From a virus (Duplodnaviria > Caudoviricetes), in the IMG/VR virus record IMGVR_UViG_3300042988_000114, positions 1 to 62,034 of that record: a stretch of DNA of 62,034 nucleotides. One strand, given 5' to 3'. Below are positions 2,824-24,849 of this stretch, piece after piece. The translations under genes and the position numbers were made by a program. The notes under the pieces were generated by a model that had not been told where the DNA came from, did not search any database, and worked only from the letters and a program-made list of their open reading frames with translations. Numbering within the stretch: position 1 is the stretch's first letter; every line of letters begins with the position of its first letter.

Positions 2824-2908
2824 TGTTGTTTGATAGAGTATTTATTTGCTAATTTTACAGTATTGCGGTTTCTATTTTCAACCGCAGTGTTACCTAAATA
2901 AATACCTT

Positions 2909-4379: not shown

Positions 4380-4459
4380 AGTTGCCTATTAGTAGTTGAA
4401 CTATGATTATAACAGATTAAGAAATTTTAGTCAATAAAAAAGCCCAATCTGTTTCCAGA

Positions 4460-5059: not shown

Positions 5060-5063
5060 AAAT

Positions 5064-5137
5064 TGGAGCGGGATAGCGGAATCGAACCGCTGACTTGAAC
5101 TTGGAAGGATCTCGTTTTACCATTAAACTAATCCCGC
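5064..5137 (-). tRNA. tRNA-Gly(TCC)
   Basis: Cloverleaf, anticodon loop CTTCCAA, CCA end. Confidence 0.95.
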
Positions 5138-5142
5138 TAATT

Positions 5143-5217
5143 TGGTGGGTGATGAGAGGATCGAACTCCCGACAAACTGCGTGTAAGGCAGCGACTCTAC
5201 CGCTGAGCTAATCACCC
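5143..5217 (-). tRNA. tRNA-Val(TAC)
   Basis: Cloverleaf, loop CTTACAC, CCA end. Confidence 0.95.
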
Positions 5218-5221
5218 ATAT

Positions 5222-5300
5222 TGGTTGCAAAGGCAGGATTTGAACCTGCGATCTCCAGCTTATGAGACTGGCGAGGACGTCCGGACTCCTCTACTCTGCT
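5222..5300 (-). tRNA. tRNA-Met(CAT), initiator-like
   Basis: Loop CTCATAA, unpaired 1:72, CCA end. Confidence 0.85.
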
Positions 5301-5307
5301 TCAATAT

Positions 5308-5874
5308 TTATACCAGTTGCTCTGCCTGTAGCAAAGAAACTGTATCTGCATCCAATTCAATCTCAGTGCGAACGTTAAGTTCCAACACCTTGTCATTGAT
5401 GCTTTGTTTTTGTTTCTTCAGGTTACGCATTTCTGCCTTGTAACCCTCGAGCTGACTTGCTTCAAGCACGCCAGTGTCAACTGTGTCGTTGTAACCGTAA
5501 ATACGGCTATTCTTGTCTTGGCCGCGAAGCTTCTCTAGCTTGCCTTCAATGACTGCTGTATCCTCGACAACCTTGCTTTCAGTTAGGCCTTTCAAGTGAC
5601 CCAGGCGCTTGTCGATGAATGCTGCGTCTGTTAACAGATCTGCAACACCAGCTTCTGTGTTAGCACGACCAACCTTTGCACGGATGCTGTACAAGGCCTT
5701 GGTCAACTGTGTACGCTTGGCATCGTTGCGGATCAGAGCCTCACGTGCTGTAGTCAGTACTGAAGTGGTGCTTTGAAACTCGTTAAGGGAAACTGTCAAT
5801 GCGATATCGATCGTCTTGATGTGTTCCTGGATTGTGTTTTGTAGGGCGTTTGCTTTGCGAAGTGTTAGTTTCAT
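5308..5874 (-). CDS. Coiled-coil hypothetical protein (weakly reminiscent of the DIP1984 family)
   Basis: 188-aa helical ORF with AAGGA RBS. Confidence 0.75.
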   Translation of the reverse strand: MKLTLRKANALQNTIQEHIKTIDIALTVSLNEFQSTTSVLTTAREALIRNDAKRTQLTKALYSIRAKVGRANTEAGVADLLTDAAFIDKRLGHLKGLTESKVVEDTAVIEGKLEKLRGQDKNSRIYGYNDTVDTGVLEASQLEGYKAEMRNLKKQKQSINDKVLELNVRTEIELDADTVSLLQAEQLV

Positions 5875-5909
5875 AATCGAGTTCCTTTCTGTTTGATTTT
5901 AATAGGGGT

Positions 5910-6145
5910 GCAACGTATGGCAAGTCAATTGCGGGACAATGTGCAATGTACATTAGATTGAGTTGATTTTCAGGGCAACCTTTTTCTAAAGCAAAATACA
6001 ACAAGCAGAGGATACCAATATCGCCGAGCATCAACAAACAAGCAACTCAATGCCAATTCATCTCGGAGCACTGGATCACGATTGTTATTCCAATATAGCT
6101 TTCAAGGCTGTATTGAATGTGCAATCTCTCATCTCCATACGCTAC
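5910..6145 (-). ncRNA. Structured leader with repeated UUG motifs, closed by an 11-bp stem
   Basis: GUAGCGUAUGG pairs with CCAUACGUUGC; about 19 UUG triplets in the element. Confidence 0.5.
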
Positions 6146-6171
6146 AGCTAGTTTTAAGAAACTAGCAAAAA

Positions 6172-6247
6172 TGGAGGACGGTGTAGGAGTTTAACCTACC
6201 TTATACCGAGTTTGCAATCCGGCGCATAAACGCTCTGCCAACCGTCC
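6172..6247 (-). tRNA. tRNA-Cys(GCA)
   Basis: Cloverleaf, anticodon GCA, atypical T-loop TTAAACT, CCA end. Confidence 0.85.
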
Positions 6248-6342
6248 ATATTAGTCTGGTGGTTGAACCTATTTCAAGTTCAACGCTCTCGTCGTGCTTC
6301 ATAGTCCAGCGAATCGCCTTAGCTCCACACAATCACCAAATT

Positions 6343-6416
6343 CTTATTTAGAAACACATTCGCTGGACCCATCCAAACCGTAAAATCTTTCAGGAACAAA
6401 TGTGCTTTCAAATAAG
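6343..6416 (-). repeat. Conserved-stem hairpin cassette A (divergent copy)
   Basis: cttatttagaaacacatt ... aatgtgctttcaaataag inverted arms. Confidence 0.6.
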
Positions 6417-6503
6417 TTGCTTCTACCGTTTGGGTTGCTGTGGACTTGCTACTATGATTTCACAAGCTACCCACTACCTATCCAACTTTAACCATCAAAG
6501 CAT

Positions 6504-6611
6504 ACTTATATGTAAACACACTGTAGTACATAACACCTTGCTGTCATGCTAACCTGGAATACGGCTCCAATTAAGTATACCGAAATAACATCAATGTGTT
6601 TGCATATAAGT
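6504..6611 (-). repeat. Conserved-stem hairpin cassette B
   Basis: acttatatgtaaacacactg ... caatgtgtttgcatataagt. Confidence 0.75.
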
Positions 6612-7455
6612 GGAGGACTGAGAATACATCTCTCCCAACAACACCTCGAGCATTATTACAAACCTTGCGAGTCTGCTTTCTCTCGACTTCCACTAAACCC
6701 ATATTGCTATGTAGCCTAGTCTGCTGTCAGCATCGCCGTTTTTAAAGCCAGGCAGTAGGCTTGTCGTCACATGCTATTCTATGCTTTCTATCCCGTTGAC
6801 CTTGCGAGCCATTAAGTCTTGCGAACTACGAAACTTCCTGCATAAACAGATTTCACCTTGCGAGTTACGTCTGACTAGATTCACTTGCGTGTCTAGTATT
6901 AGATGCTTTTCACATATGACCGAGTCAGTCTTTGCGTTTTAATGATAGTGAGAATCGAACCCACCGCATTCTGTTTAAGAGACAGATGTTCTACCAATGA
7001 ACTATATCAACCTACTGCGATGTGCTGACTCAGTTGCTGCGTAAAGTTTTGGCTCTACACAATACAACACACCACGTACCTTTCCTCTTGCGGAGTAATC
7101 AGTCGTCTTTCGCGACCAGCGTCTGCATTACTACAGCCACCACCCACTAAAACTGCATACGAGCTCTTAGGTGCAACCCTTCGAACCAATACACTACCCT
7201 TTCTCATACCAATTAACAAAGTTGGTTTCGCATAGAAGTCAGCACCACCTGTTACTTTCCATCTACTCAAGTTCCCCTTGATGCAATCTCAGGCTTGTAA
7301 GCAAACGTTCTTCCCTATGCACTTTGCGTCACTGTTACATCCACCCGTCGCTGAGTGAACGCTCCCTCACAGGAGTGAGCAGGCTTGTCTAAATGAACTA
7401 TTGCTAGCGGAGTTATGTAGGCATACCTCCTTTGGCTGTGTCACCACAGTTATTC
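6612..7455 (-). ncRNA. Probable GOLLD RNA (about 845 nt)
   Basis: No credible ORF; many GCAA tetraloop hairpins (CUCGCAAG near 6664, 6801, 6857); size, phage tRNA-cluster context and internal tRNA match the GOLLD class; boundaries approximate. Confidence 0.72.
6940..7011 (-). tRNA. tRNA-Lys(CTT)-like element inside the putative GOLLD RNA, no CCA
   Basis: Intact D arm, TCTGT-CTCTTAA-ACAGA anticodon arm, GGTTCGATTC T arm; frayed acceptor end. Confidence 0.8.
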
Positions 7456-7512
7456 TTCGCATCAAGCTGGGCGAACCATACTCTTTGCAGGACATTAAAC
7501 TGCCCTTTAATT

Positions 7513-7673
7513 CTTAACATTGCGAAACATACTGGTGGACTACCGCGTTACTCTACGCCAAATAGTAAACTTAATCCAACTGCGTCCAGTTGCGATCAAA
7601 TGCGTCTACTACTCCAGTTCGTTAGTCTGGCTGTGCATGAACTCAAAATCCAGTTCTGCTTCGCAATGTTAAG
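7513..7673 (-). ncRNA. Unknown rod-like RNA with a long terminal stem
   Basis: cttaacattgcgaaacatactgg / ccagttctgcttcgcaatgttaag arms; internal stems. Confidence 0.5.
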
Positions 7674-7676
7674 TAA

Positions 7677-7830
7677 GTTCTTATACAATTGCACACACGC
7701 AGGAATCGAAACCTGCTGCACTTATTTTAAGAAAGTGCATGTTGCCTTATAGCAAACAGTTTCGAACCTGCTTACTACTACATCAGCTCTGTTTTCGACG
7801 CAGAACCTCTGTGTGCATGTGTATAAGAAC
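7677..7830 (-). ncRNA. Unknown RNA with three T-loop-like hairpins
   Basis: Terminal stem gttcttatac..gcacac / gtgtgc..gtataagaac; UCGA loops inside. Confidence 0.5.
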
Positions 7831-7846
7831 TCTTATACGTTATCTA

Positions 7847-7920
7847 TTTTAAAGAACTCGGTTAGTTAGCACAATGTCTAACTAAGCTTCTATTGTAGCA
7901 AACATTTCATTTGCTGTCAA
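7847..7920 (-). promoter_or_regulatory. Sigma70 promoter followed by a boxB-like hairpin and boxA
   Basis: TTGACA-17-TACAAT with TG extension; TTAGTTAG/CTAACTAA hairpin; GTTCTTTAAAA. Confidence 0.75.
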
Positions 7921-7931
7921 CAGTTATTTAG

Positions 7932-8222
7932 AAATTTATTTTGATGCCTCTTTTTACCTGCTTACAAGGTTACGGGTAAGACTTGCGTCTTTCAGTTGAC
8001 CCTCATGCAACCAGTAGAGTGTTACTCTACCCTATTGCAATCCTGGTTCCTGCGTATTGCTACGTGGAACAGATCGTTTCTAACTCATAGGTGTTAGACG
8101 CCACTGTAGTCTCTTACAAACTACACAAGAGTGCCCAGCTTTCTATCTGGACCGGATTTTCGGCAAGAGTCACGCAACCTATTAGCGTGGTACGCCTGCT
8201 TACTTTACATCAAAACAAATTT
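7932..8222 (-). ncRNA. Unknown multi-hairpin RNA (about 290 nt)
   Basis: 15-bp closing stem aaatttattttgatg / catcaaaacaaattt; several hairpins; no ORF; directly after boxA. Confidence 0.6.
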
Positions 8223-8285
8223 TTAAAGAACGTTTGTTAATTGCTTAACATGTGTGTATTGTAACACATTTTTCTTTATTGTCAA
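8221..8285 (-). promoter_or_regulatory. Sigma70 promoter followed by a boxB-like hairpin and boxA
   Basis: TTGACA-16-TACAAT; GTTAA-GCAA-TTAAC hairpin; CGTTCTTTAAAA. Confidence 0.78.
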
Positions 8286-8304
8286 CTACTGTTGAAAATA
8301 AACT

Positions 8305-8389
8305 TGGTGCGGATGGTCGGACTCGAACCGACACGCCTTTCGGCGCTAGAACCTAAATCTAGTGCGGCTACCAATTACGCCACATCCGC
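8305..8389 (-). tRNA. tRNA-Leu(TAG)
   Basis: Long variable arm, loop TTTAGGT, CCA end. Confidence 0.95.
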
Positions 8390-8397
8390 TTAGATAA

Positions 8398-9564
8398 TTA
8401 CTTATCGTTTAAGCTAGTATTATATGCGAAGTTGATTTTACTGTCAACATGTTTTTGCATGATTTTAGTGAAATCTTCAAACTTCTCTGCTTTTGGAGCA
8501 CAGTAGCCGCATATGCATCTAACTTGCTTGCATTGTATAACAGGAACGGTATTCCCGTCAAGTAGTTTTTGTTGATCGTCTAGAATTTTTTTGGTGTTGC
8601 TTAGATTCCCAATTGGTCCTATGCCGCCTTCGAAGTTCATTTGACAATCTTTGTTTACGTAAACATCACCATTGTGCTGTCTAATGTATAAGAAGTACCA
8701 GTTTACGCTGCAATACCAATCTTTAAAATCCGCATGTGGCACAAAGCCCATTGGATGTTTTAAGTCTTGGTTAGTACACAATCCTCTGCCGCCGCAGCAG
8801 CTACGACCAATCTTGCCCATACCCACCGTATCATCTGTTACTTCTTTTAACATGATGATCTTGTTACGGCTCTTTTCGGGCGTCTTGCTTTCGTAATAGT
8901 CTGCAAAGAACTTGAACTGATCTTTATTGTATTGCCACTTAGGTGTAGGTGTGTCGTTGGCTTTAACTACATGCTTGATATCATGCTGTTTGCAAAACTC
9001 CACAGCTTGCATGCTTATATCCCACATTTGAGGATCGTTATGCATCACAAACACTACTTTTTGCTTCCTGCTGATGGACTTATTGTAGAGAATGTTGTCT
9101 AGCACTTGCTGGCGCTGCTTAGGCAGTGCTTCGCTGTGAAAACTAACTGTAAACTCATCTACGTGCTTAGTGACCTCGGTCCACAGATTTTTTCCTGCTA
9201 CACCGTTAGTGGTTACTGTAACTGTTAATGTCCAGTCATCCTTGAATGCTTCGTGGCGCTTTCTAAGCTCTTGCAGAATCTCTACAATGTTAGGATGATA
9301 GATAGCTTCGCCGCCATATAAATTTAGAACCACGATGCGTTGCCACTTAGGCTTGAGCATCATGTAACGGTGAACATAATCAAACATAAAGTCGATTGTG
9401 TTTAAGCATTCATCTAGCGGAGGGTGCGAGCTATGGTTATCATGCCACTGTGGTCCACAATAGCTGCAATCAAGATTACAGCGTAGAGTTAACTCCCAAT
9501 CCAACAGCAGAATTGGCCTATTAGATGGATCAATTGCTGGCTCAACGCTTACAATCTTATCCAT
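8398..9564 (-). CDS. Radical SAM protein with Cys-rich C-terminus
   Basis: CNLDCSYC, GGE, TTNG; C-terminal CxxxxCxCxxC. Confidence 0.88.
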   Translation of the reverse strand: MDKIVSVEPAIDPSNRPILLLDWELTLRCNLDCSYCGPQWHDNHSSHPPLDECLNTIDFMFDYVHRYMMLKPKWQRIVVLNLYGGEAIYHPNIVEILQELRKRHEAFKDDWTLTVTVTTNGVAGKNLWTEVTKHVDEFTVSFHSEALPKQRQQVLDNILYNKSISRKQKVVFVMHNDPQMWDISMQAVEFCKQHDIKHVVKANDTPTPKWQYNKDQFKFFADYYESKTPEKSRNKIIMLKEVTDDTVGMGKIGRSCCGGRGLCTNQDLKHPMGFVPHADFKDWYCSVNWYFLYIRQHNGDVYVNKDCQMNFEGGIGPIGNLSNTKKILDDQQKLLDGNTVPVIQCKQVRCICGYCAPKAEKFEDFTKIMQKHVDSKINFAYNTSLNDK

Positions 9565-10135
9565 ATACCATTACCAGTTGTTGTTCAAACCATTCTTTGC
9601 ATTCTGCAAAGGGTTTAGCAAATCGCAAGTTAAACCAAACTCGAGATCCTGTATTGTTGATGCCATGCATCTTTTGAATGTCCAGTAACCAACCTTCGTT
9701 AGCATTACTCGGATACACTTCTATGTAGTCTTGGTCCTTTACATAGGTAAGACTGTCTGTGGTGTTAATGAAATAGTTAAACCCAGTATTCTGGCCGGGT
9801 TGGTCTTTGTGCTCTGCACCATTGCCCACTAGTTTGTTCACGGACACTATGGTAGGCTCTAGCTCACTTAAACTTGCTAACATTAGCGGAAGAAAGGGCA
9901 TTGACTTTTCGATCAATGGGCCTGTCATATTATACCAGTAACTGCTACCGTTAGTAACGTGGCTAATTGTGCCAGCAGATCCTAGTTCGTAGTGGTATCC
10001 ATACTCACTATACTTGTATTGCTTTGTGATTTTATCACAGTTTGAGGTAACTAGACCAATGCCATGCTCTAATACTGCAATGGTATTTTTCCAATTATGA
10101 TCAATTCTGATCGGGGTTTTGTATGTTAGTAACAT
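9557..10135 (-). CDS. Hypothetical protein, possible cupin/oxygenase fold
   Basis: HKD...H..N...R pattern. Confidence 0.55.
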   Translation of the reverse strand: MLLTYKTPIRIDHNWKNTIAVLEHGIGLVTSNCDKITKQYKYSEYGYHYELGSAGTISHVTNGSSYWYNMTGPLIEKSMPFLPLMLASLSELEPTIVSVNKLVGNGAEHKDQPGQNTGFNYFINTTDSLTYVKDQDYIEVYPSNANEGWLLDIQKMHGINNTGSRVWFNLRFAKPFAECKEWFEQQLVMVYG

Positions 10136-10138
10136 GTA

Positions 10139-10419
10139 TCTATAAAGAGGTGGAGCATATAAAACTTATTTTTCAACCGTGGACTGATGCACGGCCGGTA
10201 GCTATCCGGCTCGCTTCGTAAGCTCAAACGGGTAATTGCCATGCCCTAACTTACACATCTTCTCAGAGTCTCAATAATTCGCGATTTTAAAATCCATTTG
10301 TTGCCTCGGAGGTTTCCGATATTTGATCACGGGCCACTATTCTCAGGCAAGAAAGATCGCTACTAAATCTACCACAGGTAATAAGTCACTGCCTTGTGTA
10401 TGCTCCACCTCTTTATAGA
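10139..10419 (-). ncRNA. Unknown 281-nt RNA bounded by a perfect 21-bp inverted repeat
   Basis: tctataaagaggtggagcata / tatgctccacctctttataga; own promoter; no ORF. Confidence 0.6.
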
Positions 10420-10433
10420 CAAATTGTTGAGTT

Positions 10434-10461
10434 ATTATAACAAAATTTGAATTTAAGTCAA
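10434..10461 (-). promoter_or_regulatory. Sigma70 promoter
   Basis: TTGACT-16-TATAAT with TG extension. Confidence 0.75.
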
Positions 10462-10468
10462 CTGGAAT

Positions 10469-11662
10469 TTACGTAGTTAGGTCCAGTAAGTGGAACAATG
10501 GAGTAGAATTCAGCTTTAATCCAAATCCATAAGTTCCTTCTACTAGGCTCATTGGGCTTACTCCACTTGTAAATTCTTTTGATCCATGGTAGAACGCTTT
10601 CCGCAATGAATCTAGCTCAGGGAGTTCATGCAGCCAAAAATACCAATCGCTTCGTTCTTTGTTCGGCTTCACAACTTGAAATTTATTATTATCCCACGTA
10701 TCTTTATACAACACTGAATTAAAAATTCGACGCTGAGCAGCATCATAGTGAGACTTGTTGTGATTATTAGTTAAAAACCAAATTGGGCTTTCTAATAAAG
10801 GTCTTGCTGCTTTGTTATGATTAAAATACAGTGCAATTTGATAAGCCTGCTCCACTGGCAACAGAGGCAGGTCCGCAGACCAATAAAATAGTTCAACTCT
10901 GTCCTCTCCCATTGCTTCAACCATGCTTGCATTAGTGTGAAAGCTGTCTAGGAACTTAAAGTATACCTTTCCATCAACTGCTGTAACATACGGTTTGTCA
11001 GTTCCAATTACATGACCAACTTTTCTACTTGTTGGCGATACCAACGATAACTTAGTCTCACAGTTGGGATCAAGACGAATAACCGTACTGCCCAGACTTA
11101 AGTGACCGATATTGATTTGGGACAATCTATTTGTAAGTTGATCCACTCCCAAGGACTGGTTTCCTAAATACTCTGCATAATCAACAATGTTGATTTTTAT
11201 TTCAGGATTGGATATTTTTAATCTATCAAGAGTTGGCTTAATGGAATAGTTCCATTCGCTTGCTGCATTCCTTGCAGAAGTATCCTTGGTGTTAGGAGTG
11301 TAACCATTTCCATCAATAAGATGTTTTGGCCAACGCACCATTACTTCGTCAAGTTTAATATTGTTTGTTAAAAACGTTTCCAATATGTTATGACTATCGG
11401 CGCCGCCCGAATAATGCAATACTACATAATCGTATTTGTCTCTAATTTGTAAAGCACGTTCCTTGTACAAAGTTGTTAGTGGGATTTTTCCCAACAACGA
11501 TTTGTCAAACTTTTCCCAAACTTGATTGTGAAAATAAAAAGAAACTGGGCCGGATCTGTTTGCATACGCATGTCGATATGCATCAATTTTTGCAGTGAAT
11601 GGCACTGAGTTAGAAACCCAACATCCATATTTACTACTGAGTGTTTTTGAGATATTAACCAT
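10469..11662 (-). CDS. PP-loop (adenine nucleotide alpha-hydrolase-like) protein, paralog 1
   Basis: YSGGADS, GTDKP, ELFYW. Confidence 0.7.
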   Translation of the reverse strand: MVNISKTLSSKYGCWVSNSVPFTAKIDAYRHAYANRSGPVSFYFHNQVWEKFDKSLLGKIPLTTLYKERALQIRDKYDYVVLHYSGGADSHNILETFLTNNIKLDEVMVRWPKHLIDGNGYTPNTKDTSARNAASEWNYSIKPTLDRLKISNPEIKINIVDYAEYLGNQSLGVDQLTNRLSQINIGHLSLGSTVIRLDPNCETKLSLVSPTSRKVGHVIGTDKPYVTAVDGKVYFKFLDSFHTNASMVEAMGEDRVELFYWSADLPLLPVEQAYQIALYFNHNKAARPLLESPIWFLTNNHNKSHYDAAQRRIFNSVLYKDTWDNNKFQVVKPNKERSDWYFWLHELPELDSLRKAFYHGSKEFTSGVSPMSLVEGTYGFGLKLNSTPLFHLLDLTT

Positions 11663-11689
11663 TAGTTGTTGACGTTAACACTATTTATA

Positions 11690-11763
11690 TGGTGCTCCTA
11701 CAAAGAATCGAACTTTGGATTACGCTATACCACAGCGTCGGTATGCCATTTACCTATAAGAGC
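11690..11763 (-). tRNA. tRNA-Thr(GGT)
   Basis: Cloverleaf, loop GTGGTAT, CCA end. Confidence 0.85.
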
Positions 11764-11764
11764 T

Positions 11765-11841
11765 TGGTGCCCCGGGCGAGACTCGAACTCGCAAAATTTG
11801 GATTTTGAATCCAACACGTATACCAATTCCGTCACCGGGGC
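11765..11841 (-). tRNA. tRNA-Leu(CAA), short variable arm
   Basis: Leu-type D arm, loop TTCAAAA, CCA end. Confidence 0.88.
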
Positions 11842-11845
11842 AGGA

Positions 11846-13054
11846 TTAGTTGGTGCGTACTGCAAATACTTCTTGAAAGGACTCTCCCCTAATCACATCA
11901 TATTTTTTTGTATAATCAAAAAATGCTATTGGATCATGCGGGGTTGATTCAATTAACCCCTTCTTTACATTTAACAACTCCGTACGCAATACTAGATAAT
12001 TTGGCGCAGTTAAAATCTCTACCGATTTATCAATTTCAGTGATTGCTTTACTTCGTAGCTGCTTTGGTAAATTGTTAAAATGCATGCCAGGCGGCGAAGT
12101 CACATTGTAACATTTTATACCAATTGATGCATTTTCATTGTATAGTTTCATTAGAAAAGAGGCAAGTGCAGAAAAGTCCATTAAACTATATGCAGATATA
12201 GCAGTGGTCACTTCTAAATTAAATGGAGCAGGCAACTGATTTAATTTAAGAACATTACTTTCGACTTTAGGCCAATCAGTGCCGCTGCGAATATATTCCG
12301 CAGATTTTCCTACTGCGTCAATGCTCATTACTAACTCTACTTTTTTAAACTCACTAAGTCGAGTAATAAAAAGTGGATTATACACACTACAATTGGTATA
12401 TAACTCTAACTCCATATTCCTACTAAACCCATTGCTAATTAAGTAGTCTAGATAGTCGTAATATTCTTTTATCAAAAATGGTTCGCCACCGGTTAAACAT
12501 ACCTTTCGAACTGACGCCAACAACGACTTGTCCTTGAGACTTTCAATTACCGCAGGGTCTGCTTTAGTTATTGGAATTATACTGTACTCGAGATGACTTC
12601 CGGCTTTATCCGGCTTGATCTTATGTTCAATTTTTTCTGCTGCAAAGCTGGAACTAGATGTTTCATCGCACATCCTGCATTTCATATTACATAGATTGCT
12701 AAATCTAAGTTCAATTCTTGTTGGTACTGTTGGACTGTCAGCAGTAAACTTGTTTGCAAACCACTGGTCTTCATACTCGGGCTCGGGTCCTACATTGTAG
12801 TAATTCCAAATTGCTCCGCGTGTGCTTTTTAGTCCATGTCTTTCACGCTCTTTGCAACCAGAACATGCAGCAGGAACGATCCCTTGCTGCATTTCTTGTT
12901 TTATATTCTTGAGCCATTCGCTATTAAAATAATCAGACGGGGTTGCTTCCATCTCTAAATTTTTAATCATGTGACACGGACTAGGCGAGTTAGCATGGTA
13001 ATACAACAATGACCACGGGGCAGGACAGAAAAACTTCTCCGAAAACTTTGCCAT
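11846..13054 (-). CDS. Radical SAM protein with N-terminal twitch-like domain
   Basis: CNMKCRMC, TGGEP, N-terminal CPAPW; start MAKFSEK after AGGAG. Confidence 0.88.
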   Translation of the reverse strand: MAKFSEKFFCPAPWSLLYYHANSPSPCHMIKNLEMEATPSDYFNSEWLKNIKQEMQQGIVPAACSGCKERERHGLKSTRGAIWNYYNVGPEPEYEDQWFANKFTADSPTVPTRIELRFSNLCNMKCRMCDETSSSSFAAEKIEHKIKPDKAGSHLEYSIIPITKADPAVIESLKDKSLLASVRKVCLTGGEPFLIKEYYDYLDYLISNGFSRNMELELYTNCSVYNPLFITRLSEFKKVELVMSIDAVGKSAEYIRSGTDWPKVESNVLKLNQLPAPFNLEVTTAISAYSLMDFSALASFLMKLYNENASIGIKCYNVTSPPGMHFNNLPKQLRSKAITEIDKSVEILTAPNYLVLRTELLNVKKGLIESTPHDPIAFFDYTKKYDVIRGESFQEVFAVRTN

Positions 13055-13069
13055 ACTACTCCTATAATT

Positions 13070-13145
13070 TGGTGCCTCTAACCGGAGTCGAACCAGTGAC
13101 ACATGGATTTTCAATCCACTGCTCTACCAACTGAGCTATAGAGGC
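13070..13145 (-). tRNA. tRNA-Phe(GAA)
   Basis: Cloverleaf, loop TTGAAAA, CCA end. Confidence 0.95.
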
Positions 13146-13244
13146 AAATTTTAAATGGTTGTGGGTTTTTACCACTCCTGAACCTTGTTCCACCGCTCTT
13201 TCGAAGACTTATGTGGCGATCCCGTGCAGCTCGCATTACACTAT

Positions 13245-13365
13245 ACCATATAGAAGCACTCTCAAATGCAGGCCTAGGAGGAGTCAAGCTCTGAAACCGT
13301 TGCGTATGCATCCACTAAGGTCTCTTCTCCCGCTTTGACTTATGCCAAGAATACTTCTATATGAT
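13245..13365 (-). repeat. Conserved-stem hairpin cassette C
   Basis: accatatagaagcactct ... agaatacttctatatgat. Confidence 0.65.
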
Positions 13366-13508
13366 AGCGTTCGGTGGGACTCGAACCCACAGTCACAATT
13401 TTTCAATCGTGTAATTTCAACGGGTTTATCAATTTCTTGAGGAGGCGGTTTAAGAGTCCACCCTAGCCCGTCGCGTATACCAATTCCTGCTACGATAATT
13501 TCATCGCT
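13366..13508 (-). ncRNA. Leu-type tRNA-like RNA with an expanded anticodon arm
   Basis: D arm GCAGGAATTGGTATACGC, T arm GTGGGTTCGAGTCCCAC, about 42 nt in place of the anticodon loop. Confidence 0.55.
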
Positions 13509-13615
13509 ACCATATAGAAACACACTAACGAACCTGGCTGCGGGGATCGAACCCACTTAATTCCCGTAGCACCAGCAGTACTGCTACGATACTGGTTAAT
13601 GTGTTTGCATATGGC
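13509..13615 (-). repeat. Conserved-stem hairpin cassette D (loop contains a T arm)
   Basis: accatatagaaacacactaa ... ttaatgtgtttgcatatgg. Confidence 0.78.
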
Positions 13616-13710
13616 GGTGCATAAGTTAACCTAAAACTAGTCTAATATCGCGGCCGCAATATTTCATCTATGTCTTAGGATATACACGTTGGTACCTTGC
13701 GTACCTTACG

Positions 13711-13816
13711 CACCATATAAAAACACACTGACAACGTGCTCAGTTACGCTGCTCTTACTGCCGGCCGGACAGGGCGTTCGTCTATTGCTAGACTACCAAT
13801 GTGTTTTTATATGGTG
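13711..13816 (-). repeat. Conserved-stem hairpin cassette E
   Basis: caccatataaaaacacactg ... caatgtgtttttatatggtg. Confidence 0.8.
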
Positions 13817-13923
13817 ACAGTTTAGTCCGATAACTGTCAAAGAGTTGTTGTAGTTTGCTCTAGAAACAACATACATTTGGTCGTCATGACCGGGCACTCC
13901 ACGTTTGAGCCTTCTGGTTAGAT

Positions 13924-13999
13924 ACCATATAGAAGCACACTAACCATCATTGGTACTGTTTGCAACCAGTACGGATTTGAAAATGTGTTTCTATATAGG
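13924..13999 (-). repeat. Conserved-stem hairpin cassette F
   Basis: accatatagaagcacact ... aatgtgtttctatatagg. Confidence 0.72.
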
Positions 14000-14222
14000 C
14001 TCCACCGTTAACGACAGCATTCGTCCTGGCTTTATTTTATGTCGGTTAATGCACGGTGGACACACATGCCGACGGGGTTACAGTTTCAATGATGGGATTC
14101 GAACCCACTAACTACCCGTGCGATGCGGGTTGTGCTACGCTCGCCATACATTCAGTTTACTCCGTTACGTACCGGACCAATTGTATGACTTTGCACTATC
14201 TTTCCATGTCGTCTTCATTGTT

Positions 14223-14308
14223 ACCATATAAAAACATACTGCTGGCTATGCCCCTGGCGTCCCAGAAGCTATCAGAGTCTAACTGAATGCAATATGTTTT
14301 TATATGGT
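14223..14308 (-). repeat. Conserved-stem hairpin cassette G
   Basis: accatataaaaacatactgc ... gcaatatgtttttatatggt. Confidence 0.8.
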
Positions 14309-14400
14309 CGGTGCAGGTGAAATCGCATCACCGAGCCAAGTTATGTCTTTTGTACATTATGCACAGAACTCGCTGAGGCTTCCTCAGTACCTAGGATATG

Positions 14401-14484
14401 CACCATATGTAAACACACTATTAGTTTCTCCATCATCCGACTTTAAAATCAGCTGCGGTTTAAATAATGTGTTTGCATATGGTG
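14401..14484 (-). repeat. Conserved-stem hairpin cassette H
   Basis: caccatatgtaaacacactatt ... aataatgtgtttgcatatggtg. Confidence 0.8.
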
Positions 14485-14555
14485 GGACTGTTCGGGCTCG
14501 AACCGAAAACCTACCGGTTAAAAGCCGGTTGCTCTAACCATTGAGCTACAATCCC
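14480..14555 (-). tRNA. tRNA-Lys(TTT)
   Basis: Cloverleaf, loop CTTTTAA; CCA overlaps cassette H. Confidence 0.95.
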
Positions 14556-14558
14556 GTA

Positions 14559-14632
14559 TGGTCCTCCGCCTAGGTATCGATCCTAGTTTTACTGGTTAAG
14601 AGCCAGTTACATCACCTTAATGTTTGCGAAGG
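14559..14632 (-). tRNA. tRNA-Lys(CTT), atypical
   Basis: Loop CTCTTAA, T-loop ATCGATA, CCA end. Confidence 0.8.
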
Positions 14633-14716
14633 TTGGTGTATTAATTTTAGTTTAACGTGCCAACCTTAGACCAATACGGGATCTAAAGTTGACACTAACG
14701 TTTACCACGTTTCATG

Positions 14717-14848
14717 TCATTCACCTTTGTCAAATTTTCTACCACTCTTCTTACTCTTCACACCTATTGTGAATAGTATCTTCTTACCAAACCCTGCACG
14801 ATATACTCGACAGTCATGGTATGTACGCTTAGAACCAAATGCTCGCAT
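14717..14848 (-). CDS. Small basic hypothetical protein (43 aa)
   Basis: Manual translation MRAFGSKRTYHDCRVYRAGFGKK...; AGGAG RBS. Confidence 0.5.
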   Translation of the reverse strand: MRAFGSKRTYHDCRVYRAGFGKKILFTIGVKSKKSGRKFDKGE

Positions 14849-14857
14849 TGCCTGCTC

Positions 14858-15340
14858 CTACATGTTTCTAAATTGAATTGTACGCCAGGCTTCAGGATCG
14901 GGTTGTTCATTCTCATCGTATGTCCAACCTAGTGCCTTCATCATCTTGTGCTTAACACGCAAGTTAGGTATACGTGTACGTTCAGTATCACTGAACCCCA
15001 TCATGATTCCAACTTCTGCTACTGCACCACTGCGACATAAGCCAGCCATACAGTGTACTACAACATTCATTTTATTGTCAAGTGCATGTTGAAGTAGTTT
15101 CACTATTTCATTTGCTTGTTCGTCTGTAATTTTAGCTTCGTCCGGAAACCCATCTTTATCTTCGGCATCTAAAAACTCGAAACGATGTGCTTCCTTAAAA
15201 GTGTGTGCAGGTGTTGGCCACCAACTCGGACACGGATCCATAATTTGAATCAACATAGAATTGTCCCCAGCATCGTGATGCAATTTCATTGGTACATCGG
15301 CCGCTGCTACGTTTTCAATCCAAGGCATTTTATTCTCCAT
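14858..15340 (-). CDS. Protein tyrosine/dual-specificity phosphatase-like protein
   Basis: HCMAGLCRS (HCx5R). Confidence 0.82.
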   Translation of the reverse strand: MENKMPWIENVAAADVPMKLHHDAGDNSMLIQIMDPCPSWWPTPAHTFKEAHRFEFLDAEDKDGFPDEAKITDEQANEIVKLLQHALDNKMNVVVHCMAGLCRSGAVAEVGIMMGFSDTERTRIPNLRVKHKMMKALGWTYDENEQPDPEAWRTIQFRNM

Positions 15341-15380
15341 TCTGCATTATAACATCGATTCTATTATAACGCAAGAGTAT

Positions 15381-15457
15381 TGGTCGGTCCTGAGGGACTC
15401 GAACCCCCAACCTACGATTTCGAAGACCGGAACTCTATCCAGTTGAGCTAAGGACCG
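15381..15457 (-). tRNA. tRNA-Arg(TCG)
   Basis: Cloverleaf, loop CTTCGAA, CCA end. Confidence 0.9.
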
Positions 15458-15572
15458 AGGTGAAGGTTTTAATGGTGCCGGGATTACCTTCAACCCCGTG
15501 TACACAGCCCATCCCACGTTTCGTGTACAGCGGACGCTGATATCTTCTCTTGCGAGTTAGTGGGTCAGCGGA

Positions 15573-16172
15573 TTACATTGGTGCAGGGCCATTACCGTAA
15601 ACTTCATCACGGCTTTTCATGCCAACTGTACCACCTTCTGCTTCGATACGTTTGATAACGTCTTCAAACAAGATAGGAGTAAAGTTAGTGTGCTCTACAC
15701 ATACACAATGGTATCGTGGATCGATAATTTCACCACCGTAGCCATTTGATTTCATTACACGACGATCATGTAAGTGACCGTGAATGTTAACACCAAAGCG
15801 ACCTAACGACGATTCATGTAAAGGGATATGACTCAAGATCATTCCGTTCAATACATGATACCCACGCACATCACGAAAGTGTTCGGTATATTCCTCTAAG
15901 CGAAAAATATCGTGGTTGCCTTTGATTAACACCTTGTCGCCATTTAGGCGGCGCATGATGCCTAATGCTTTACGGTTAATAACAACGTCACCTAAGTGAT
16001 ATACTTTGTCATTTGGGCGCACTGTGTCATTCCAACGGCGCACCATTTCTTCGTCCATTTCGTCAGGATTGTCCCACGGACGCAATTTTACGTTAGGGTC
16101 ATCTTTACTCATAAACTTGCAGACACCCATGTGCCCGAAGTGAGTATCACTGACTAAAAAACTTGCCGGCAT
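15573..16172 (-). CDS. Calcineurin-like metallophosphoesterase
   Basis: SDTHFGH, LGD, GNHD, HGHLH. Confidence 0.9.
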   Translation of the reverse strand: MPASFLVSDTHFGHMGVCKFMSKDDPNVKLRPWDNPDEMDEEMVRRWNDTVRPNDKVYHLGDVVINRKALGIMRRLNGDKVLIKGNHDIFRLEEYTEHFRDVRGYHVLNGMILSHIPLHESSLGRFGVNIHGHLHDRRVMKSNGYGGEIIDPRYHCVCVEHTNFTPILFEDVIKRIEAEGGTVGMKSRDEVYGNGPAPM

Positions 16173-20927: not shown

Positions 20928-21019
20928 TGGCGGAAAGCAGAGGAGTCGAACCCCATCCCCGTTAAGAGAACCTGGTTTTCAAGGCCAGTCGCAGGACCAT
21001 CCCCGCTGCATTACTTTCC
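20928..21019 (-). tRNA. tRNA-Ser(TGA)
   Basis: Long variable arm, loop CTTGAAA, CCA end. Confidence 0.9.
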
Positions 21020-21024
21020 ATATT

Positions 21025-21100
21025 TGGTGCCACGAACTGGAGTTGAACCAGTGACGCATAACTTTTCAGGCTATCGCTCTACCAACTGAGCTACCGCGGC
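21025..21100 (-). tRNA. tRNA-Phe(GAA), second copy
   Basis: Cloverleaf, loop CTGAAAA, CCA end. Confidence 0.93.
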
Positions 21101-21108
21101 ATATTGTT

Positions 21109-21193
21109 TGGTGGAGTTTGTCAGGGCTTTCACCTGATACTGCCCACGTGAGTTACACGCAGTTTCGTCCTATATGTTACGTATTCAAACCCC
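21109..21193 (-). ncRNA. 85-nt alanine-identity tRNA-like RNA resembling a tmRNA tRNA-like domain
   Basis: GGGGTTT/AAACTCC-ACCA with G3:U70; T arm TCAGG-TGAAAGC-CCTGA; no D stem or anticodon loop. Confidence 0.6.
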
Positions 21194-21350
21194 AAATAGG
21201 TTTTTGAGAGCCCAACTATCCTTCGGCAGGACTCACTGGATTGTCTCGTATGGGCAAGTTTAAACTACCATAGCTGCAATGTGGCTTTGTCACATACCAG
21301 ACGATATGCTATGCACTATGGGACTCAAACCCTACGTCTATCTCAAAACT

Positions 21351-21604
21351 TGGCTTCGTTAGCAGGACTCGAACCTGCGATAAGGGGCTTAAAATCGCGT
21401 ATGCTGGGTGCCCCCCGTGTTTCCCAAAGTTACCCTCACATCCCCTCAATGCCTTATCTTACGTTCAAATAGTTGGACCTGTTCCGCACTTCCCGGACTC
21501 ACAGTGTTTGGTTTTAAAGCCTACGCGATTGTTATCCATCTATCATACTAGCACATTATCTCATCTACTCAATGCTACTCTACCTTCCTCTACACTATAA
21601 CGAA
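21351..21604 (-). ncRNA. 254-nt tRNA-like RNA with a large internal insert
   Basis: Perfect acceptor TTCGTTA/TAACGAA-GCCA, U8A9, T arm GCAGGTTCGAGTCCTGC. Confidence 0.7.
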
Positions 21605-21611
21605 ATAAACT

Positions 21612-21687
21612 TGGTGGAAATAAGAGGGGTTGAACCTCTGACCGTCAACGTATGAAGCTGCTGCTCTACCAACTGAGCTATATTTCC
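21612..21687 (-). tRNA. tRNA-Met(CAT) (elongator Met or Ile2)
   Basis: Cloverleaf, loop TTCATAC, CCA end. Confidence 0.9.
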
Positions 21688-22008
21688 AAATAAAACCCTT
21701 AAGGTTTCCGGCACTGGGCTCGGACATACGATAGAATCAGTATCTATATATGATCGTCATCCTTAAGGTATTCATAAACAAACTAGTGGGACGCTGCCAA
21801 AATTATATAACATATACTGATTCGTCTAGTTTGTTTGTGAATACCCTGTATTTCTACAGGATATGTTAGGGTCGATACCCTAACCAGTTATTTGTACTCT
21901 GCTGTTACCGCCAGCATTTCATCCAACTGTCCGCCCGTTTAAAGATTATTATAGTGTTCTTTCAGGTCCTCGTTACCTGGCCATATAGGTCTTATTAACA
22001 CTGTTAAA

Positions 22009-22167
22009 CTATGCGTAAGTTCGATTCAACTGTTTGCGTTTGTCAAATTCGATTTGAGCACGTTCCAACTTGTCCTGAATCAACTGTTTACGTTGTTCTG
22101 GGGTTAGTTCATTTTCAGTTACAAACCTTACCTCACGCATACGTTTTCTTAAATCAATCTTCTTCAT
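22009..22167 (-). CDS. Small basic helical protein (52 aa)
   Basis: Manual translation MKKIDLRKRMREVRFVTENELTPEQRKQL...; AAGGA RBS. Confidence 0.65.
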   Translation of the reverse strand: MKKIDLRKRMREVRFVTENELTPEQRKQLIQDKLERAQIEFDKRKQLNRTYA

Positions 22168-22180
22168 AATTCCTTTTTAC

Positions 22181-22215
22181 AAAACAAAAAACCCTGGGTG
22201 TTTAGTCCAGGGTTC
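22181..22215 (-). terminator. Intrinsic terminator (putative attenuator) upstream of the tRNA block
   Basis: AACCCTGG-loop-CCAGGGTT followed by a U-rich tract. Confidence 0.8.
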
Positions 22216-22238
22216 TTAAGTTTGTAAGTTACTTGTTA

Positions 22239-22388
22239 TTAACAGTAACCATCTCCCTCTCGAACCCCAATTCCAAATCCCTCTGAACTGCGATCACTTT
22301 TATTAATTGCAATCGTAGACCACAAGGCTGGCATGCCTAGTGTGGGCTGTTGTTGTTTGCAATAATGATTAAAAGTGTTGTTCATCAT
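22239..22388 (-). CDS. Putative leaderless leader peptide (49 aa, all 20 amino acids)
   Basis: ATG 8 nt downstream of the -10 box; double TAA stop 23 nt before the terminator. Confidence 0.6.
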   Translation of the reverse strand: MMNNTFNHYCKQQQPTLGMPALWSTIAINKSDRSSEGFGIGVREGDGYC

Positions 22389-22395
22389 AGTACCT

Positions 22396-22424
22396 ATTGT
22401 ATATTTATTTACCTTTCGTGTCAA
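22396..22424 (-). promoter_or_regulatory. Sigma70 promoter with an embedded TAAATA
   Basis: TTGACA-17-TACAAT. Confidence 0.8.
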
Positions 22425-22463
22425 CCACGAACTGTAATTTATTTACCTTTTTCTTAAATTTAT

Positions 22464-23600
22464 TTATGATCCGAGATCATAAAACTTACTTGACAAGCGT
22501 TTAACGTTAGCATTTCCGGCCCACGTACCCAATTTGTGTTGTTGCGGCAATGTGTTCCAAAGATGCTCTATTCCAACTTTCCACGCATGCTTTGCAGCAT
22601 CGCTATCTGGTAGTTTAAAAAACCACTGATCTCTCGGAGAGTGTATCAGTGACATCGGTTTAACCTGAAAGTCAACTGGTTTCCACCCCGGGTAAACAAT
22701 GCTGTTTAATAGCTCTATTGTAAGCCATTTAACTTTTTTGTCAACCACTGTGCTGTTCATAAAGATTCTTTCTTTATCCTGGCTCAGCCCTTCTGCTTTC
22801 TTTAAAAAGTTTTTAACTGCATGTCCTTGCTTGGTCAGCAACTTAACGCAGCTTGGATCCCAATAAAATAATTCATTGTGATCCCACTCATCATTCTTTG
22901 ATTGTACAGCACTACTTACTGCATTGTCAACCGAGTCTGTGAATTTAAAGTAATAATTTTTTCCAAACCCGTGTACCATTGGTTTTTCGAGCCCGTAAAT
23001 GAATCCTACCCGTTTTCCACTTTCTATTAAACGCATCCAGTGCGGAACTGTTTGTTTAATTACTTGTTTTACTGCCGAGTTAGGGTTAACAAAATTGTTT
23101 AACCCGTATACCCATTCACTTGCGGATTGCTTACTAAAATAATCTACAGTAGGCTGAGCAATGTCAACTAATGTGTGCTGCATCCACGGCTGCTGCTGCT
23201 TTGCTACAGAAACCTTTGGTACCGCTACATTGTAAATCTCACCATTTAACCAATCTTCTTTGCTTCCAGTGGCAGCAAAGTTCACTAGACTTGCACATTC
23301 GTCTAGCCTAATGTTGTTGGTTACGAACGTATGTAGTATGTTGTCTGAGTCGCTACCACCGCTGTACCACAAAACCAAATAATCGTATTTGTCTCGAAGC
23401 TGTTGGGCTCGTTCGCGATACAACTCTTCTAAACTCTCAATTGGTTCCACGGACCAGTCATGCAGCCCGAACTCCACATCATTAAAATGCCAACTAACTT
23501 TTTGATTAGTCCGGATACTAAATTCGATTGCTTCTAGCTTACTGTAGAACTTTACTGACCCTACTAGATAGTACCCAAATTTATCCTGCCTATTATTCAT
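22464..23600 (-). CDS. PP-loop protein, paralog 2
   Basis: LRDKYDYLVLWYSGGSDS, GLEKP, ELFYW. Confidence 0.7.
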   Translation of the reverse strand: MNNRQDKFGYYLVGSVKFYSKLEAIEFSIRTNQKVSWHFNDVEFGLHDWSVEPIESLEELYRERAQQLRDKYDYLVLWYSGGSDSDNILHTFVTNNIRLDECASLVNFAATGSKEDWLNGEIYNVAVPKVSVAKQQQPWMQHTLVDIAQPTVDYFSKQSASEWVYGLNNFVNPNSAVKQVIKQTVPHWMRLIESGKRVGFIYGLEKPMVHGFGKNYYFKFTDSVDNAVSSAVQSKNDEWDHNELFYWDPSCVKLLTKQGHAVKNFLKKAEGLSQDKERIFMNSTVVDKKVKWLTIELLNSIVYPGWKPVDFQVKPMSLIHSPRDQWFFKLPDSDAAKHAWKVGIEHLWNTLPQQHKLGTWAGNANVKRLSSKFYDLGS

Positions 23601-24754
23601 AGCCCAATGTTATATACTTTTTCAAAATTCTTAAGCCCATAAGACAAGACTTTGTTACGTTTGTACTCATCTGGTACTACTGCCCACATATGCTCTAATC
23701 CAGTACGCCAGTTTGCAATCTCGGCAGAATGTTCCGACATACCATAAAACCAATCGTCCCTGTAGGTAAAAACAATAGATATCGCTTTGAACTGATAGGG
23801 TTCAAGTTTCCACTTAGGATACACAAGTTTATTAACCATATTTAAATCAAGCCATCGAACTTTTTTGTTAATAACTGTGAAGTTCCCAAACGCCTTGTCG
23901 ACCCTGTTGTCGGTTAACCATTCCTCGTCGCCTGTGGCTAATTTTAAAAAATTTTTAATCACATGAGCCTGTTTAATCATTAACGGCACACAATCCGGGC
24001 TCCAATAAAACAACTCAACGTTTTCTCGAGGATCGTTATTACGCTGCACTTGCGGGCTTACTACGCGGTCAAACATATCAAAGAATCGCACCTGATAACC
24101 AGACGACGACCAAGCAATACAAGGTTTATCAATTCCGTATATAAATCCAACTTTTTTACCACTGTCCATTAACTTTACCCATTCAGGGACTTTAAGTCTC
24201 GAGTCTTGACTAGTCATGCTGTAGGGATTAAAGAATGCGTTCATATTATACGCCCAGTCTATGGATTTTTTATCTTTAAAGAAATCCATGGTATATGCCG
24301 GGACATCAACTAAGCGGTGTATTAACCAAGGTTGTTTAACCTTGACTTCTTCAATTTTCGGAACTGTTACTTTGTAAATTTCCGCATTTAATCTATTTGT
24401 TTGGTTGCCAGTTGCTTCGTAATTAACTGCTCCAACTACTTCGTCTAGTTTGATATTGTTATCAACGAACGTATCCAGAATATTTGTGCTGTCGGCGCCA
24501 CCGCTGTACCACAAAACCAAATAATCGTATTTGTCACGAAGCTGTTGGGCTCGCTCGCGATACAACTCATTCAATGACTGTGTAGGTTCTACCTTCCAGT
24601 TGTATGCACTAAATGCCTGGTCGTTAAAGTTCCAATAAACTTTTGATTGGGTCTTTGCTGCAACCTCTAATGCTTCGACTTTGCTGTAGAATTTTAAATT
24701 ATCAACAGTATAAAATCCGTAAGCATCTTGTCTTGATGTAGGTGTAAAGGACAT
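23597..24754 (-). CDS. PP-loop protein, paralog 3
   Basis: LRDKYDYLVLWYSGGADS, GIDKP, ELFYW; start moved out of the tRNA. Confidence 0.7.
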   Translation of the reverse strand: MSFTPTSRQDAYGFYTVDNLKFYSKVEALEVAAKTQSKVYWNFNDQAFSAYNWKVEPTQSLNELYRERAQQLRDKYDYLVLWYSGGADSTNILDTFVDNNIKLDEVVGAVNYEATGNQTNRLNAEIYKVTVPKIEEVKVKQPWLIHRLVDVPAYTMDFFKDKKSIDWAYNMNAFFNPYSMTSQDSRLKVPEWVKLMDSGKKVGFIYGIDKPCIAWSSSGYQVRFFDMFDRVVSPQVQRNNDPRENVELFYWSPDCVPLMIKQAHVIKNFLKLATGDEEWLTDNRVDKAFGNFTVINKKVRWLDLNMVNKLVYPKWKLEPYQFKAISIVFTYRDDWFYGMSEHSAEIANWRTGLEHMWAVVPDEYKRNKVLSYGLKNFEKVYNIGL

Positions 24755-24757
24755 TGT

Positions 24758-24849
24758 TGGTAGGAGTGGCCGGAATCGAACCGACATTGGCCAATTATCT
24801 GTTGCACACGGGATATAAATCCGCTGTTTTACCGTTAAACTACACTCCC
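24758..24849 (-). tRNA. tRNA-Ile(TAT), long variable region
   Basis: Loop TTTATAT, normal D and T arms, CCA end. Confidence 0.8.

Follow-up and report, generated by a model that had tools for sequence, protein, structure and literature searches.

For 50 years, the tRNA clusters of phages have been known to contain genes for additional stable RNAs, among them RNAC and RNAD of T4. These two (the species 1 and 2 RNAs; NC_000866 70908-71046 and 71053-71171) are small stable RNAs that lie in the T4-type tRNA cluster directly behind a tRNA, and excerpts of one account give their biological roles as unknown (PMC3014915). Here we analyze a 254-nt RNA encoded in a comparable position, at 21351..21604 on the minus strand of a 62,034-nt stretch of viral DNA (the window; positions 1 to 62,034 of IMG/VR virus record IMGVR_UViG_3300042988_000114, a fragment with a CheckV value of 18%). 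The window carries T4-type genes for terminase, tail sheath, gp15, and UvsX-like and UvsY-like proteins, a set typical of a T4-like myophage; the phage is a giant (jumbo) one from a lake. The array hosting the RNA contains 34 tRNAs called by ARAGORN, all on the minus strand; tRNA-Met (21612-21687) lies before the RNA across a 7-nt spacer (21605..21611), and tRNA-Phe (21025-21100) lies 250 nt beyond it. Like RNAC and RNAD, the giant RNA sits within a phage tRNA cluster and is discrete in RNA cover. With moderate confidence, we read it as a stable RNA that does not decode and has a complete tRNA as its scaffold, a self-clamped tRNA mimic that is processed like a tRNA. RNA position p is used below for window coordinate 21605-p (p1 = 21604, p254 = 21351), and all parts of the RNA are on the minus strand.

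Homologues were sought first with an exact 28-mer taken from the T arm and the acceptor end, which returned five IMG/VR loci alignable over the full 254 nt with divergent flanks. IMG/VR was then scanned with three 14-mers and metagenome contigs with one 18-mer, and the results were filtered with nhmmer. The resulting family holds 33 distinct full-length sequences, window included, which align from end to end and have total lengths of 252-260 nt. Of the 31 metagenome loci carrying the 18-mer, 28 were full-length members and three were chance matches, and the same 18-mer across 185,579 species genomes (GTDB) gave two partial chance matches, unrelated to the RNA, and no member. A covariance model (CM) of the family found exactly one strong copy per genome (178-294 bits) in five of five complete phage genomes (192-385 kb). 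ARAGORN placed tRNAs near 28 of the 32 homologous loci when 450-600 nt were examined on each side; the flanking tRNAs vary widely in identity, and a gap of 7-10 nt commonly separates the end of such a tRNA from the start of the RNA. At two loci (L238 353-356 and L236 255-258), the next tRNA, a tRNA-Arg called by ARAGORN, overlaps the last four nucleotides (GCCA) of the giant RNA.

Current annotation tools pass over the family. ARAGORN makes no call at 21351..21604 or at the RNA itself in any of the 32 homologous loci (0/33 copies with the window), and Rfam 15 has no match at the feature, neither at gathering score nor at E<=10 (tested stretch 21200-21750), giving only the flanking tRNAs and chance matches at E<=5 over 21000-22500. 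The silence of tRNA finders is what would be expected of a decayed tRNA gene, disrupted by inserted DNA and without function, and the earlier note on this DNA, written from the sequence alone, had pointed to an unconserved insert and an RNA not expressed as a unit as the signs of such an event. Both were checked, and the feature passed: 33 homologues exist, compensatory changes occur in 23-36 pairs, an invariant core lies within an insert of 161-170 nt, one copy is kept in each of the five complete genomes, and RNA depth is high relative to the flanks, which together make a functionless remnant extremely improbable.

Pairings were sought by an all-against-all column scan and by duplex folding of all 33 sequences, the latter recovering the D-stem and the first insert helix (Pa) independently. 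In a plain MAFFT alignment, 49 pairs were 95.9% paired and 23 of them showed double changes, a result reached by none of 500 shuffles, and controls slid by 1-3 columns were only 33-46% paired. The CM alignment gave 67 pairs that were 91.9% paired, 36 of them with double changes, again reached in 0/500 shuffles. Nine apparent D-stem mismatches in the CM alignment are a one-column register shift in a subgroup with GUUU/GAAC.

At its ends, the RNA has the acceptor stem that had been noted before, a perfect 7-bp helix of p1-7 (21598..21604) with p244-250 that includes U1-A72 and is followed by discriminator G73 at p251 and an encoded CCA at p252-254 (3' side, 21351..21361). The helix is paired in 99.6% of cells across the family with covariation in four of seven pairs, the CCA is present in 33/33, and the discriminator is G in 31 sequences, A in one and U in one; the first four acceptor pairs (UUCG/CGAA) and G73 are near-invariant (31-33/33). 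U8 and A9 and the canonical T arm (p227-243, 21362..21378; GCAGG/CCUGC stem, UUCGAGU loop) were likewise seen correctly, and the T arm is 100% paired with three of five pairs covarying. The note's figure of about 180 extra nucleotides also agrees with ours (254-76, about 178).

Between these ends lies the remainder of a tRNA. The 5' strand of a D-stem, GUGU at p10-13 (21592..21595), pairs with ACAC at p185-188, which directly follows the 3' part of the D-loop, GGGAA at p180-184 (loop part and strand together, 21417..21425). Three of the four pairs covary, with GUGU/ACAC, GAGU/ACUC, GUAU/AUAC and GUUU/GAAC as variants, in strands that lie 170 nt apart. The D-loop halves AGAG and GGGAA supply A14, R15, the GG pair (G18/G19 equivalent, 33/33) and A21. 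In most sequences one base (position 26) separates the D-stem from an anticodon-type stem formed by p190-195 (21410..21415) and p217-222 (21383-21388), which is 98-99% paired with 3-4 covarying pairs, and a variable loop of 4-5 nt ending in C48 connects this stem to the T arm. The tertiary positions U8, A14, U54, U55, C56, G57 and A58 are kept in 33/33, and position 15/48 is G/C in 32/33 and A/U in the most divergent member. Thus, the D-stem and anticodon-type stem both covary and stand in normal tRNA order and spacing, and ordinary tRNAs score 16-41 bits against the CM when the insert is skipped, indicating that the molecule is a whole tRNA scaffold and not just a cap.

This result changes part of the secondary structure proposed earlier. 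The helix UGAGGGG/CCCCUUA is present in the window, but across the family only 81.6% of its cells are paired and only two pairs show a double change, one each; it is replaced by the anticodon-type stem, in which GGGGGC (p190-195) pairs with the CCCC strand. Among the options raised in the note, a tRNA-capped non-coding RNA came closest, falling short in that the tRNA part is a complete scaffold and the main insert lies in the D-loop, which had not been seen.

The insertion occupies p19-179 (21426..21586), from Pa to Pa, is 161 nt long here and 161-170 nt in the 33 sequences, has covarying inner helices, and is the most conserved part of the molecule. Pa joins p19-23 (21582..21586) to p175-179 (21426-21430), with double changes in five of five pairs and 86.7% of cells paired in the CM alignment. 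A purine-rich internal loop separates it from Pb, in which GCAUU at p30-34 (21571..21575) pairs with GAUGU at p163-167 (21438-21442; 97.6% paired, three of five pairs covarying). Pe, formed by p62-71 (21534..21543) and p127-136 (21469-21478), covaries in eight of nine pairs, as when AUAGAUGGAU/GUCCAACUAU of the window is compared with UAUUGCAAU/GUUGCAAUA of locus L002, and its 3' strand runs straight into Pc. The Pc/Pd hairpin at p101-126 (21479..21504) consists of CUGU, a GAG bulge, UCCG, a 7-nt loop GGAAGUG, CGGA and ACAG; Pc (p101-104/p123-126) and the GGAAGUG cap are invariant, and Pd (p108-111/p119-122) covaries in three of four pairs (U-A 17, C-G 16). Two side hairpins, Pf and Pg, have similar GAGAUAAGG-type loops in most members and are lost in the most divergent ones. 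Pf (p38-56, 21549..21567) has a GAGAUAA-type loop and is a tentative assignment, with the outer 3 bp 84.8% paired and the inner 3 bp 64%.

Several other features were considered and set aside. The octamer GCAUUGAG does occur twice, at p30-37 and p153-160, as had been reported, the first copy forming the 5' strand of Pb, but 730 of 2000 shuffles also contain a repeated 8-mer, and only 8/33 sequences have two identical copies. A kink-turn in the Pa/Pb internal loop was judged unfit by eye from its sequence. Pairing of GAUAAGG loops with CCUUAUC is present in the window, and variable loop changes are uncompensated in other members; pairing of GGCU (p84-87) with the AGCC 3' end leaves the discriminator changes of 2/33 sequences uncompensated and has unfavorable geometry. 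Trans targets of the invariant blocks were looked for within the window, and none was found besides the RNA's own complementary strand.

In place of an anticodon loop, the anticodon-type stem carries an enlarged loop at p196-216 (21389..21409) that is 21 nt long in 29 sequences, 20 in three and 22 in one. Its first 18 nucleotides (p196-213) are invariant and the last 3-4 vary (UUAA, AUA, UGA, AGA, GAA), and because of this variation there is no conserved anticodon; U33 and a 7-nt anticodon loop are likewise absent in 33/33. The invariant part holds UACGCGAUU (p204-212, 21393-21401), which is complementary to the invariant AAUCGCGUA at p75-83 (21522..21530) in 33/33, with one base deleted in locus L252, so that 32-33 of 33 cells per pair are paired. 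AAUCGCGUA sits in the 29-nt strand joining Pe to Pc. The 9-bp pairing would be a true pseudoknot, since it crosses four helices, namely the D-stem, Pa, Pb and the anticodon stem. It was the first pairing proposed in the earlier note, and both strands are indeed present and invariant in all homologues; we infer it from complementarity and conservation, rather than regard it as proven, because two invariant strands leave no covariation. The mutual crossing described there is also real, although the helices that the 9-bp pairing crosses are the four listed above rather than the one named at the time. By our own estimate, Pa, the internal loop, Pb and Pe would stack as ~26 layers over ~70 Å, near the distance from the elbow to the anticodon of a tRNA; the insert could therefore run along the anticodon arm and clamp its loop, with Pc-Pd projecting beyond the clamp.

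Taken over the whole molecule, ~75 nt (p70-128 and p196-213) are 100% invariant, and the peripheral helices drift and covary. Such a pattern is typical of ligand pockets and active sites, and an A-rich invariant joiner, AAAACCAAACA, adjoins the pseudoknot, which raises the alternative that this core is an aptamer or ribozyme and that the tRNA body is a frame for processing and stability, with mimicry not being the function. Excerpts of two reports, in which engineered tRNA scaffolds stabilize foreign RNAs in E. coli, provide a precedent for such a frame (PMC3753655, PMC5397188). However, the kept tertiary nucleotides, D-stem and anticodon stem exceed what a processing handle would need, Rfam gave no riboswitch or ribozyme match, and the core was found only in its tRNA context, a relaxed central-hairpin pattern returning the same 13 IMG/VR contigs and no further relatives. 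We consider this explanation unlikely, though of the rivals raised here it deserves the most attention.

The presence of the RNA in RNA libraries was followed in public data. Among 24 listed public runs, part of the stretch occurs in 20 and six are RNA libraries; contigs of four metatranscriptomes from four studies were placed on 21200-21760. Positions 21352-21598 are covered in all four, and RNA contigs are confined to 21351..21604: every run has a depth of 0 in bins 21276-21313 and 21599-21655, and depth does not exceed ~4 in 21314-21332. In run X17, summed depth is ~800-16000 within the RNA, and a 774-nt contig extending into the flank has a depth of only 76. The A of CCA at 21351 is the endpoint of contigs with depths of 22 and 864, and a contig of depth 2325 runs from 21515 to nucleotide 1 of a variant copy. 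Continuous cover of 21346-21586 by one contig indicates that the insert is present in the RNA.

These contigs bear on a further alternative, that the gene encodes a precursor that becomes a normal tRNA once self-splicing or an enzyme has taken out the D-loop arm and the surplus bases of the anticodon loop. The halves AGAG and GGGAA would make a normal D-loop if joined, and the two extra segments would pair together, which resembles the leader pairings of archaeal split tRNAs. Yet RNA contigs cross both insert borders at depths of 864-2325, and no contig joint in the four runs removes the insert, the three joints listed being T arms of other tRNAs or replaced sequence. No spliced joint appeared in the contigs and no insert-less allele in the five genomes, with the reservation that contigs cannot show absence and that 76-nt RNAs are lost from such libraries. 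The next-best CM matches in three genomes are Asn, Pro and Arg tRNAs rather than an insert-less allele, and more generally no tRNA of the array stands out as an ancestor, the best CM-scoring ordinary tRNAs being of mixed identity. Removal would also leave no conserved anticodon, given the varying last 3-4 loop bases, and would discard the most conserved part of the molecule. We therefore regard a spliced precursor as very improbable. A group I intron in particular was rejected, since Intron_gpI has no match at E<=10 (nor has Rfam group II), the helix order does not fit a P3-P9 core and the insert lies in the D-loop, in line with the earlier observation that no group I core is visible. For the intron-containing tRNA offered in the note, the large insert would have to lie in the anticodon loop, and even without it that loop would keep its 20-22 nt and lack a conserved anticodon.

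On the reading that we favor, the RNA would be transcribed together with the phage tRNA array and excised like a tRNA, with RNase P cutting at nucleotide 1 and the tRNA enzymes for 3'-end processing leaving the encoded CCA at the other end. The acceptor and T arms, D-stem, 5-6 bp anticodon stem and tertiary nucleotides would fold into a normal L shape, from which the 161-nt arm (Pa, Pb, Pe, Pc, Pd and the side hairpins) would emerge between D-loop positions 17 and 18. This arm would run from the elbow along the anticodon arm, where nine invariant insert bases would pair with nine of the 21-nt loop, and the clamp would close the molecule into a ring around an invariant pseudoknotted core of ~75 nt. 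Because it has no anticodon and carries a bulky clamp, the RNA would probably not enter the ribosome or decode.

As to function, we tentatively suggest that the RNA acts as a mimic or decoy that occupies a tRNA-recognizing protein, for example a host defense nuclease that cleaves tRNAs, without offering it a cleavable anticodon loop. Excerpts of several reports document tRNA-cleaving defenses and phage tRNA counter-measures (PMC10264068, PMC11555353, PMC12445682, PMC12851939). A more specific version is rather doubtful in our estimation: a self-clamped tRNA in which a strut locks the molecule's own anticodon-loop position and the core is either an anti-defense decoy or a sensing or catalytic module, the whole belonging to a wider class that includes T4 RNAC and RNAD. 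If true, the core could titrate or inhibit host tRNA-cleaving immune nucleases and would itself be uncleavable.

A number of observations weigh against the self-clamped mimic and have to be set beside it. Folding of the single sequence gives no signal (minimum free energy -63.1 kcal/mol, z = +0.12, with 104 of 200 shuffles folding as well), and the CM alignment, being fitted to the structure, leans towards it. The 9-bp pairing never varies, so covariation cannot support it, and 16 of 300 shuffles of the window RNA also yield a perfect 9-bp helix, for which reason its support is conservation and not chance statistics; the same pairing could also form between molecules. The inner part of Pf (64% paired) and Pg (74%) are weak. 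Contigs of three runs stop at p17-20 (21585-21588, the D-loop/Pa junction) and not at nucleotide 1, one of them with an Illumina adapter; reverse transcription may have stopped there (such as at a modified base), the RNA may be cleaved there, or the assembly may have broken at a variable site. The runs were chosen for holding the stretch, and the data are assembled contigs, many from relatives that are 85-99% alike, which cannot prove ends, strand or level and may include DNA carried in RNA libraries. The decoy function and its protein partner are putative. Finally, the near-invariant acceptor (UUCG/CGAA and G73, 31-32/33) would fit recognition by a synthetase as well and would then favor a charged carrier.

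Such a carrier would be an aminoacylated RNA of special purpose, charged by a synthetase blind to the anticodon and used in non-ribosomal aminoacyl transfer or in a tmRNA-like action on stalled ribosomes. Besides the acceptor pairs and G73 (31-33/33), the CCA in 33/33 and the intact elbow and T arm speak for it, as does the SmpB gene of a related 385-kb phage (L390, G003:163694-164098, minus strand; 150.7 bits), ~9 kb from that phage's own copy of the RNA. Against it, pair 3:70 is C-G in 32/33 and U-A in 1/33, with G3:U70 in 0/33, so the tmRNA alanine identity is absent, as the earlier note had recognized. No tag frame is conserved, the only GCU-started frame running for 1-57 codons and stopping after one codon in 7/33 sequences; SmpB is present in only one of the five complete genomes, RF00023 exceeds its cut-off in none of them, and neither ARAGORN nor Rfam calls the RNA a tmRNA. 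The discriminator is A or U in 2/33 without other change, and there is no long variable arm for SerRS. We judge a charged carrier improbable, and the non-alanine tmRNA analogue entertained in the note is not supported by these results. As a separate observation, two related phage genomes, G001 and G004, contain tmRNA-3'-end-like segments (L391 1501-1624, minus strand, and L397 1501-1746, plus strand), each a T arm followed by ...CAGGUCCACCA, with sub-cut-off scores of 24-34 bits; they may be short or split tmRNA-like genes or remnants of attachment sites.

The surroundings of the RNA hold further elements. Directly downstream, at 21181-21350 on the minus strand, is a further structured RNA of ~165 nt, conserved and unannotated, which nhmmer matches at many homologous loci, often right after the giant RNA; 16 of its 40 predicted pairs show compensatory changes among nine aligned copies, its closing helix is UUUUGAGA/UCUCAAAA, Rfam has no match to it at E<=5, and RNA contigs of two runs cover 21200-21269. 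Upstream of tRNA-Met is a gene-free gap of 776 nt (21688-22463), whose end nearest the tRNA is conserved in related loci and which contains a long near-perfect hairpin at ~21765-21847 with only spurious miRNA-model matches, and just upstream of the 254-nt RNA, at 22464-24787, are two ORFs without a family match. The same array includes a GOLLD RNA (6615-7075, minus strand; 207 bits against a gathering score of 150), whose variable region contains a tRNA-Lys(CUU) at 6940-7011, and a 92-nt tRNA-Ile(UAU) (24758-24849, minus strand) with an extra arm unusually long for an Ile tRNA. Interleaved with the tRNAs, all on the minus strand, are genes for two radical SAM enzymes (8398-9564 and 11846-13114), a dual-specificity phosphatase-like protein (14858-15340) and a metallophosphoesterase (15573-16172).

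We found no published description of the giant RNA in the literature searched, and no Rfam 15 family; a 2023 catalogue of 10,006 viral candidate RNAs (PMC10690425) gave no match in the parts searched. With all 33 copies missed by tRNA finders and Rfam 15, the family marks a blind spot in annotation. Where phages contend with bacterial immunity that targets tRNAs, it would also offer a concrete candidate case of tRNA mimicry, and its length of 254 nt makes it tractable for cryo-EM, probing and pull-downs.

Compared with the canonical class I tRNA (RF00005), the giant RNA is alike in its acceptor, discriminator, CCA, 4-bp D-stem, GG, position 26, anticodon stem, 4-5 nt variable loop, UUCGA T arm, U8, A14 and R15-Y48, and in lying in an array with tRNA-like spacers. 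It differs in having 161-170 nt in the D-loop, a loop of 20-22 nt rather than 7, and a length of 252-260 nt rather than about 70-95 nt, and in being undetected by ARAGORN and the Rfam tRNA model. With tmRNA (RF00023), it shares tRNA-like ends, with T arm and CCA, that enclose a large pseudoknotted interior; tmRNA, however, has G3:U70, a tag frame, SmpB and no D-stem or anticodon stem, whereas the giant RNA has C3-G70, both stems and no conserved frame. In the T-box, Stem I is an RNA rod that contacts the tRNA elbow and base-pairs with the anticodon loop about 65-70 Å away. By analogy, the giant RNA would also have a rod reaching the anticodon loop, here covalently within the same molecule; the T-box differs in being a leader on a separate mRNA, one that senses charging and recognizes a real anticodon, and it has no sequence or Rfam similarity to the giant RNA.

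The tRNA-like part of YrlA lies within the molecule, whose ends make up the Ro-binding stem, and in this placement YrlA differs from the giant RNA; what the two share is a tRNA-mimicking domain, and a search for a Ro/TROVE gene found it in 0/5 complete genomes of the phage group. Engineered tRNA scaffolds resemble the giant RNA as structured RNAs embedded in a tRNA body and processed and stabilized by the tRNA enzymes of the cell; in these man-made molecules, the insert usually replaces the anticodon arm, whereas here a natural insert is placed in the D-loop and integrated with the anticodon loop. The description of YrlA as a bacterial Y RNA-like non-coding RNA with a tRNA-mimicking domain is taken from excerpts of its report (PMC4201824). 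T4 RNAC and RNAD (139 and 119 nt) are about half the size of the giant RNA, and no sequence similarity to it was found, with nothing from nhmmer and a CM score of 9.8 bits (E 0.008) to part of rnaC only. We nevertheless rate the giant RNA as belonging with these known but unexplained tRNA-like stable RNAs of phage tRNA clusters, as a well-defined, strongly conserved and abundant case of them, in which covariation resolves the architecture as a whole tRNA, with a D-loop strut that is probably clamped onto the anticodon position, suggesting that a larger RNA machine can be built with the tRNA fold as its integrated frame.

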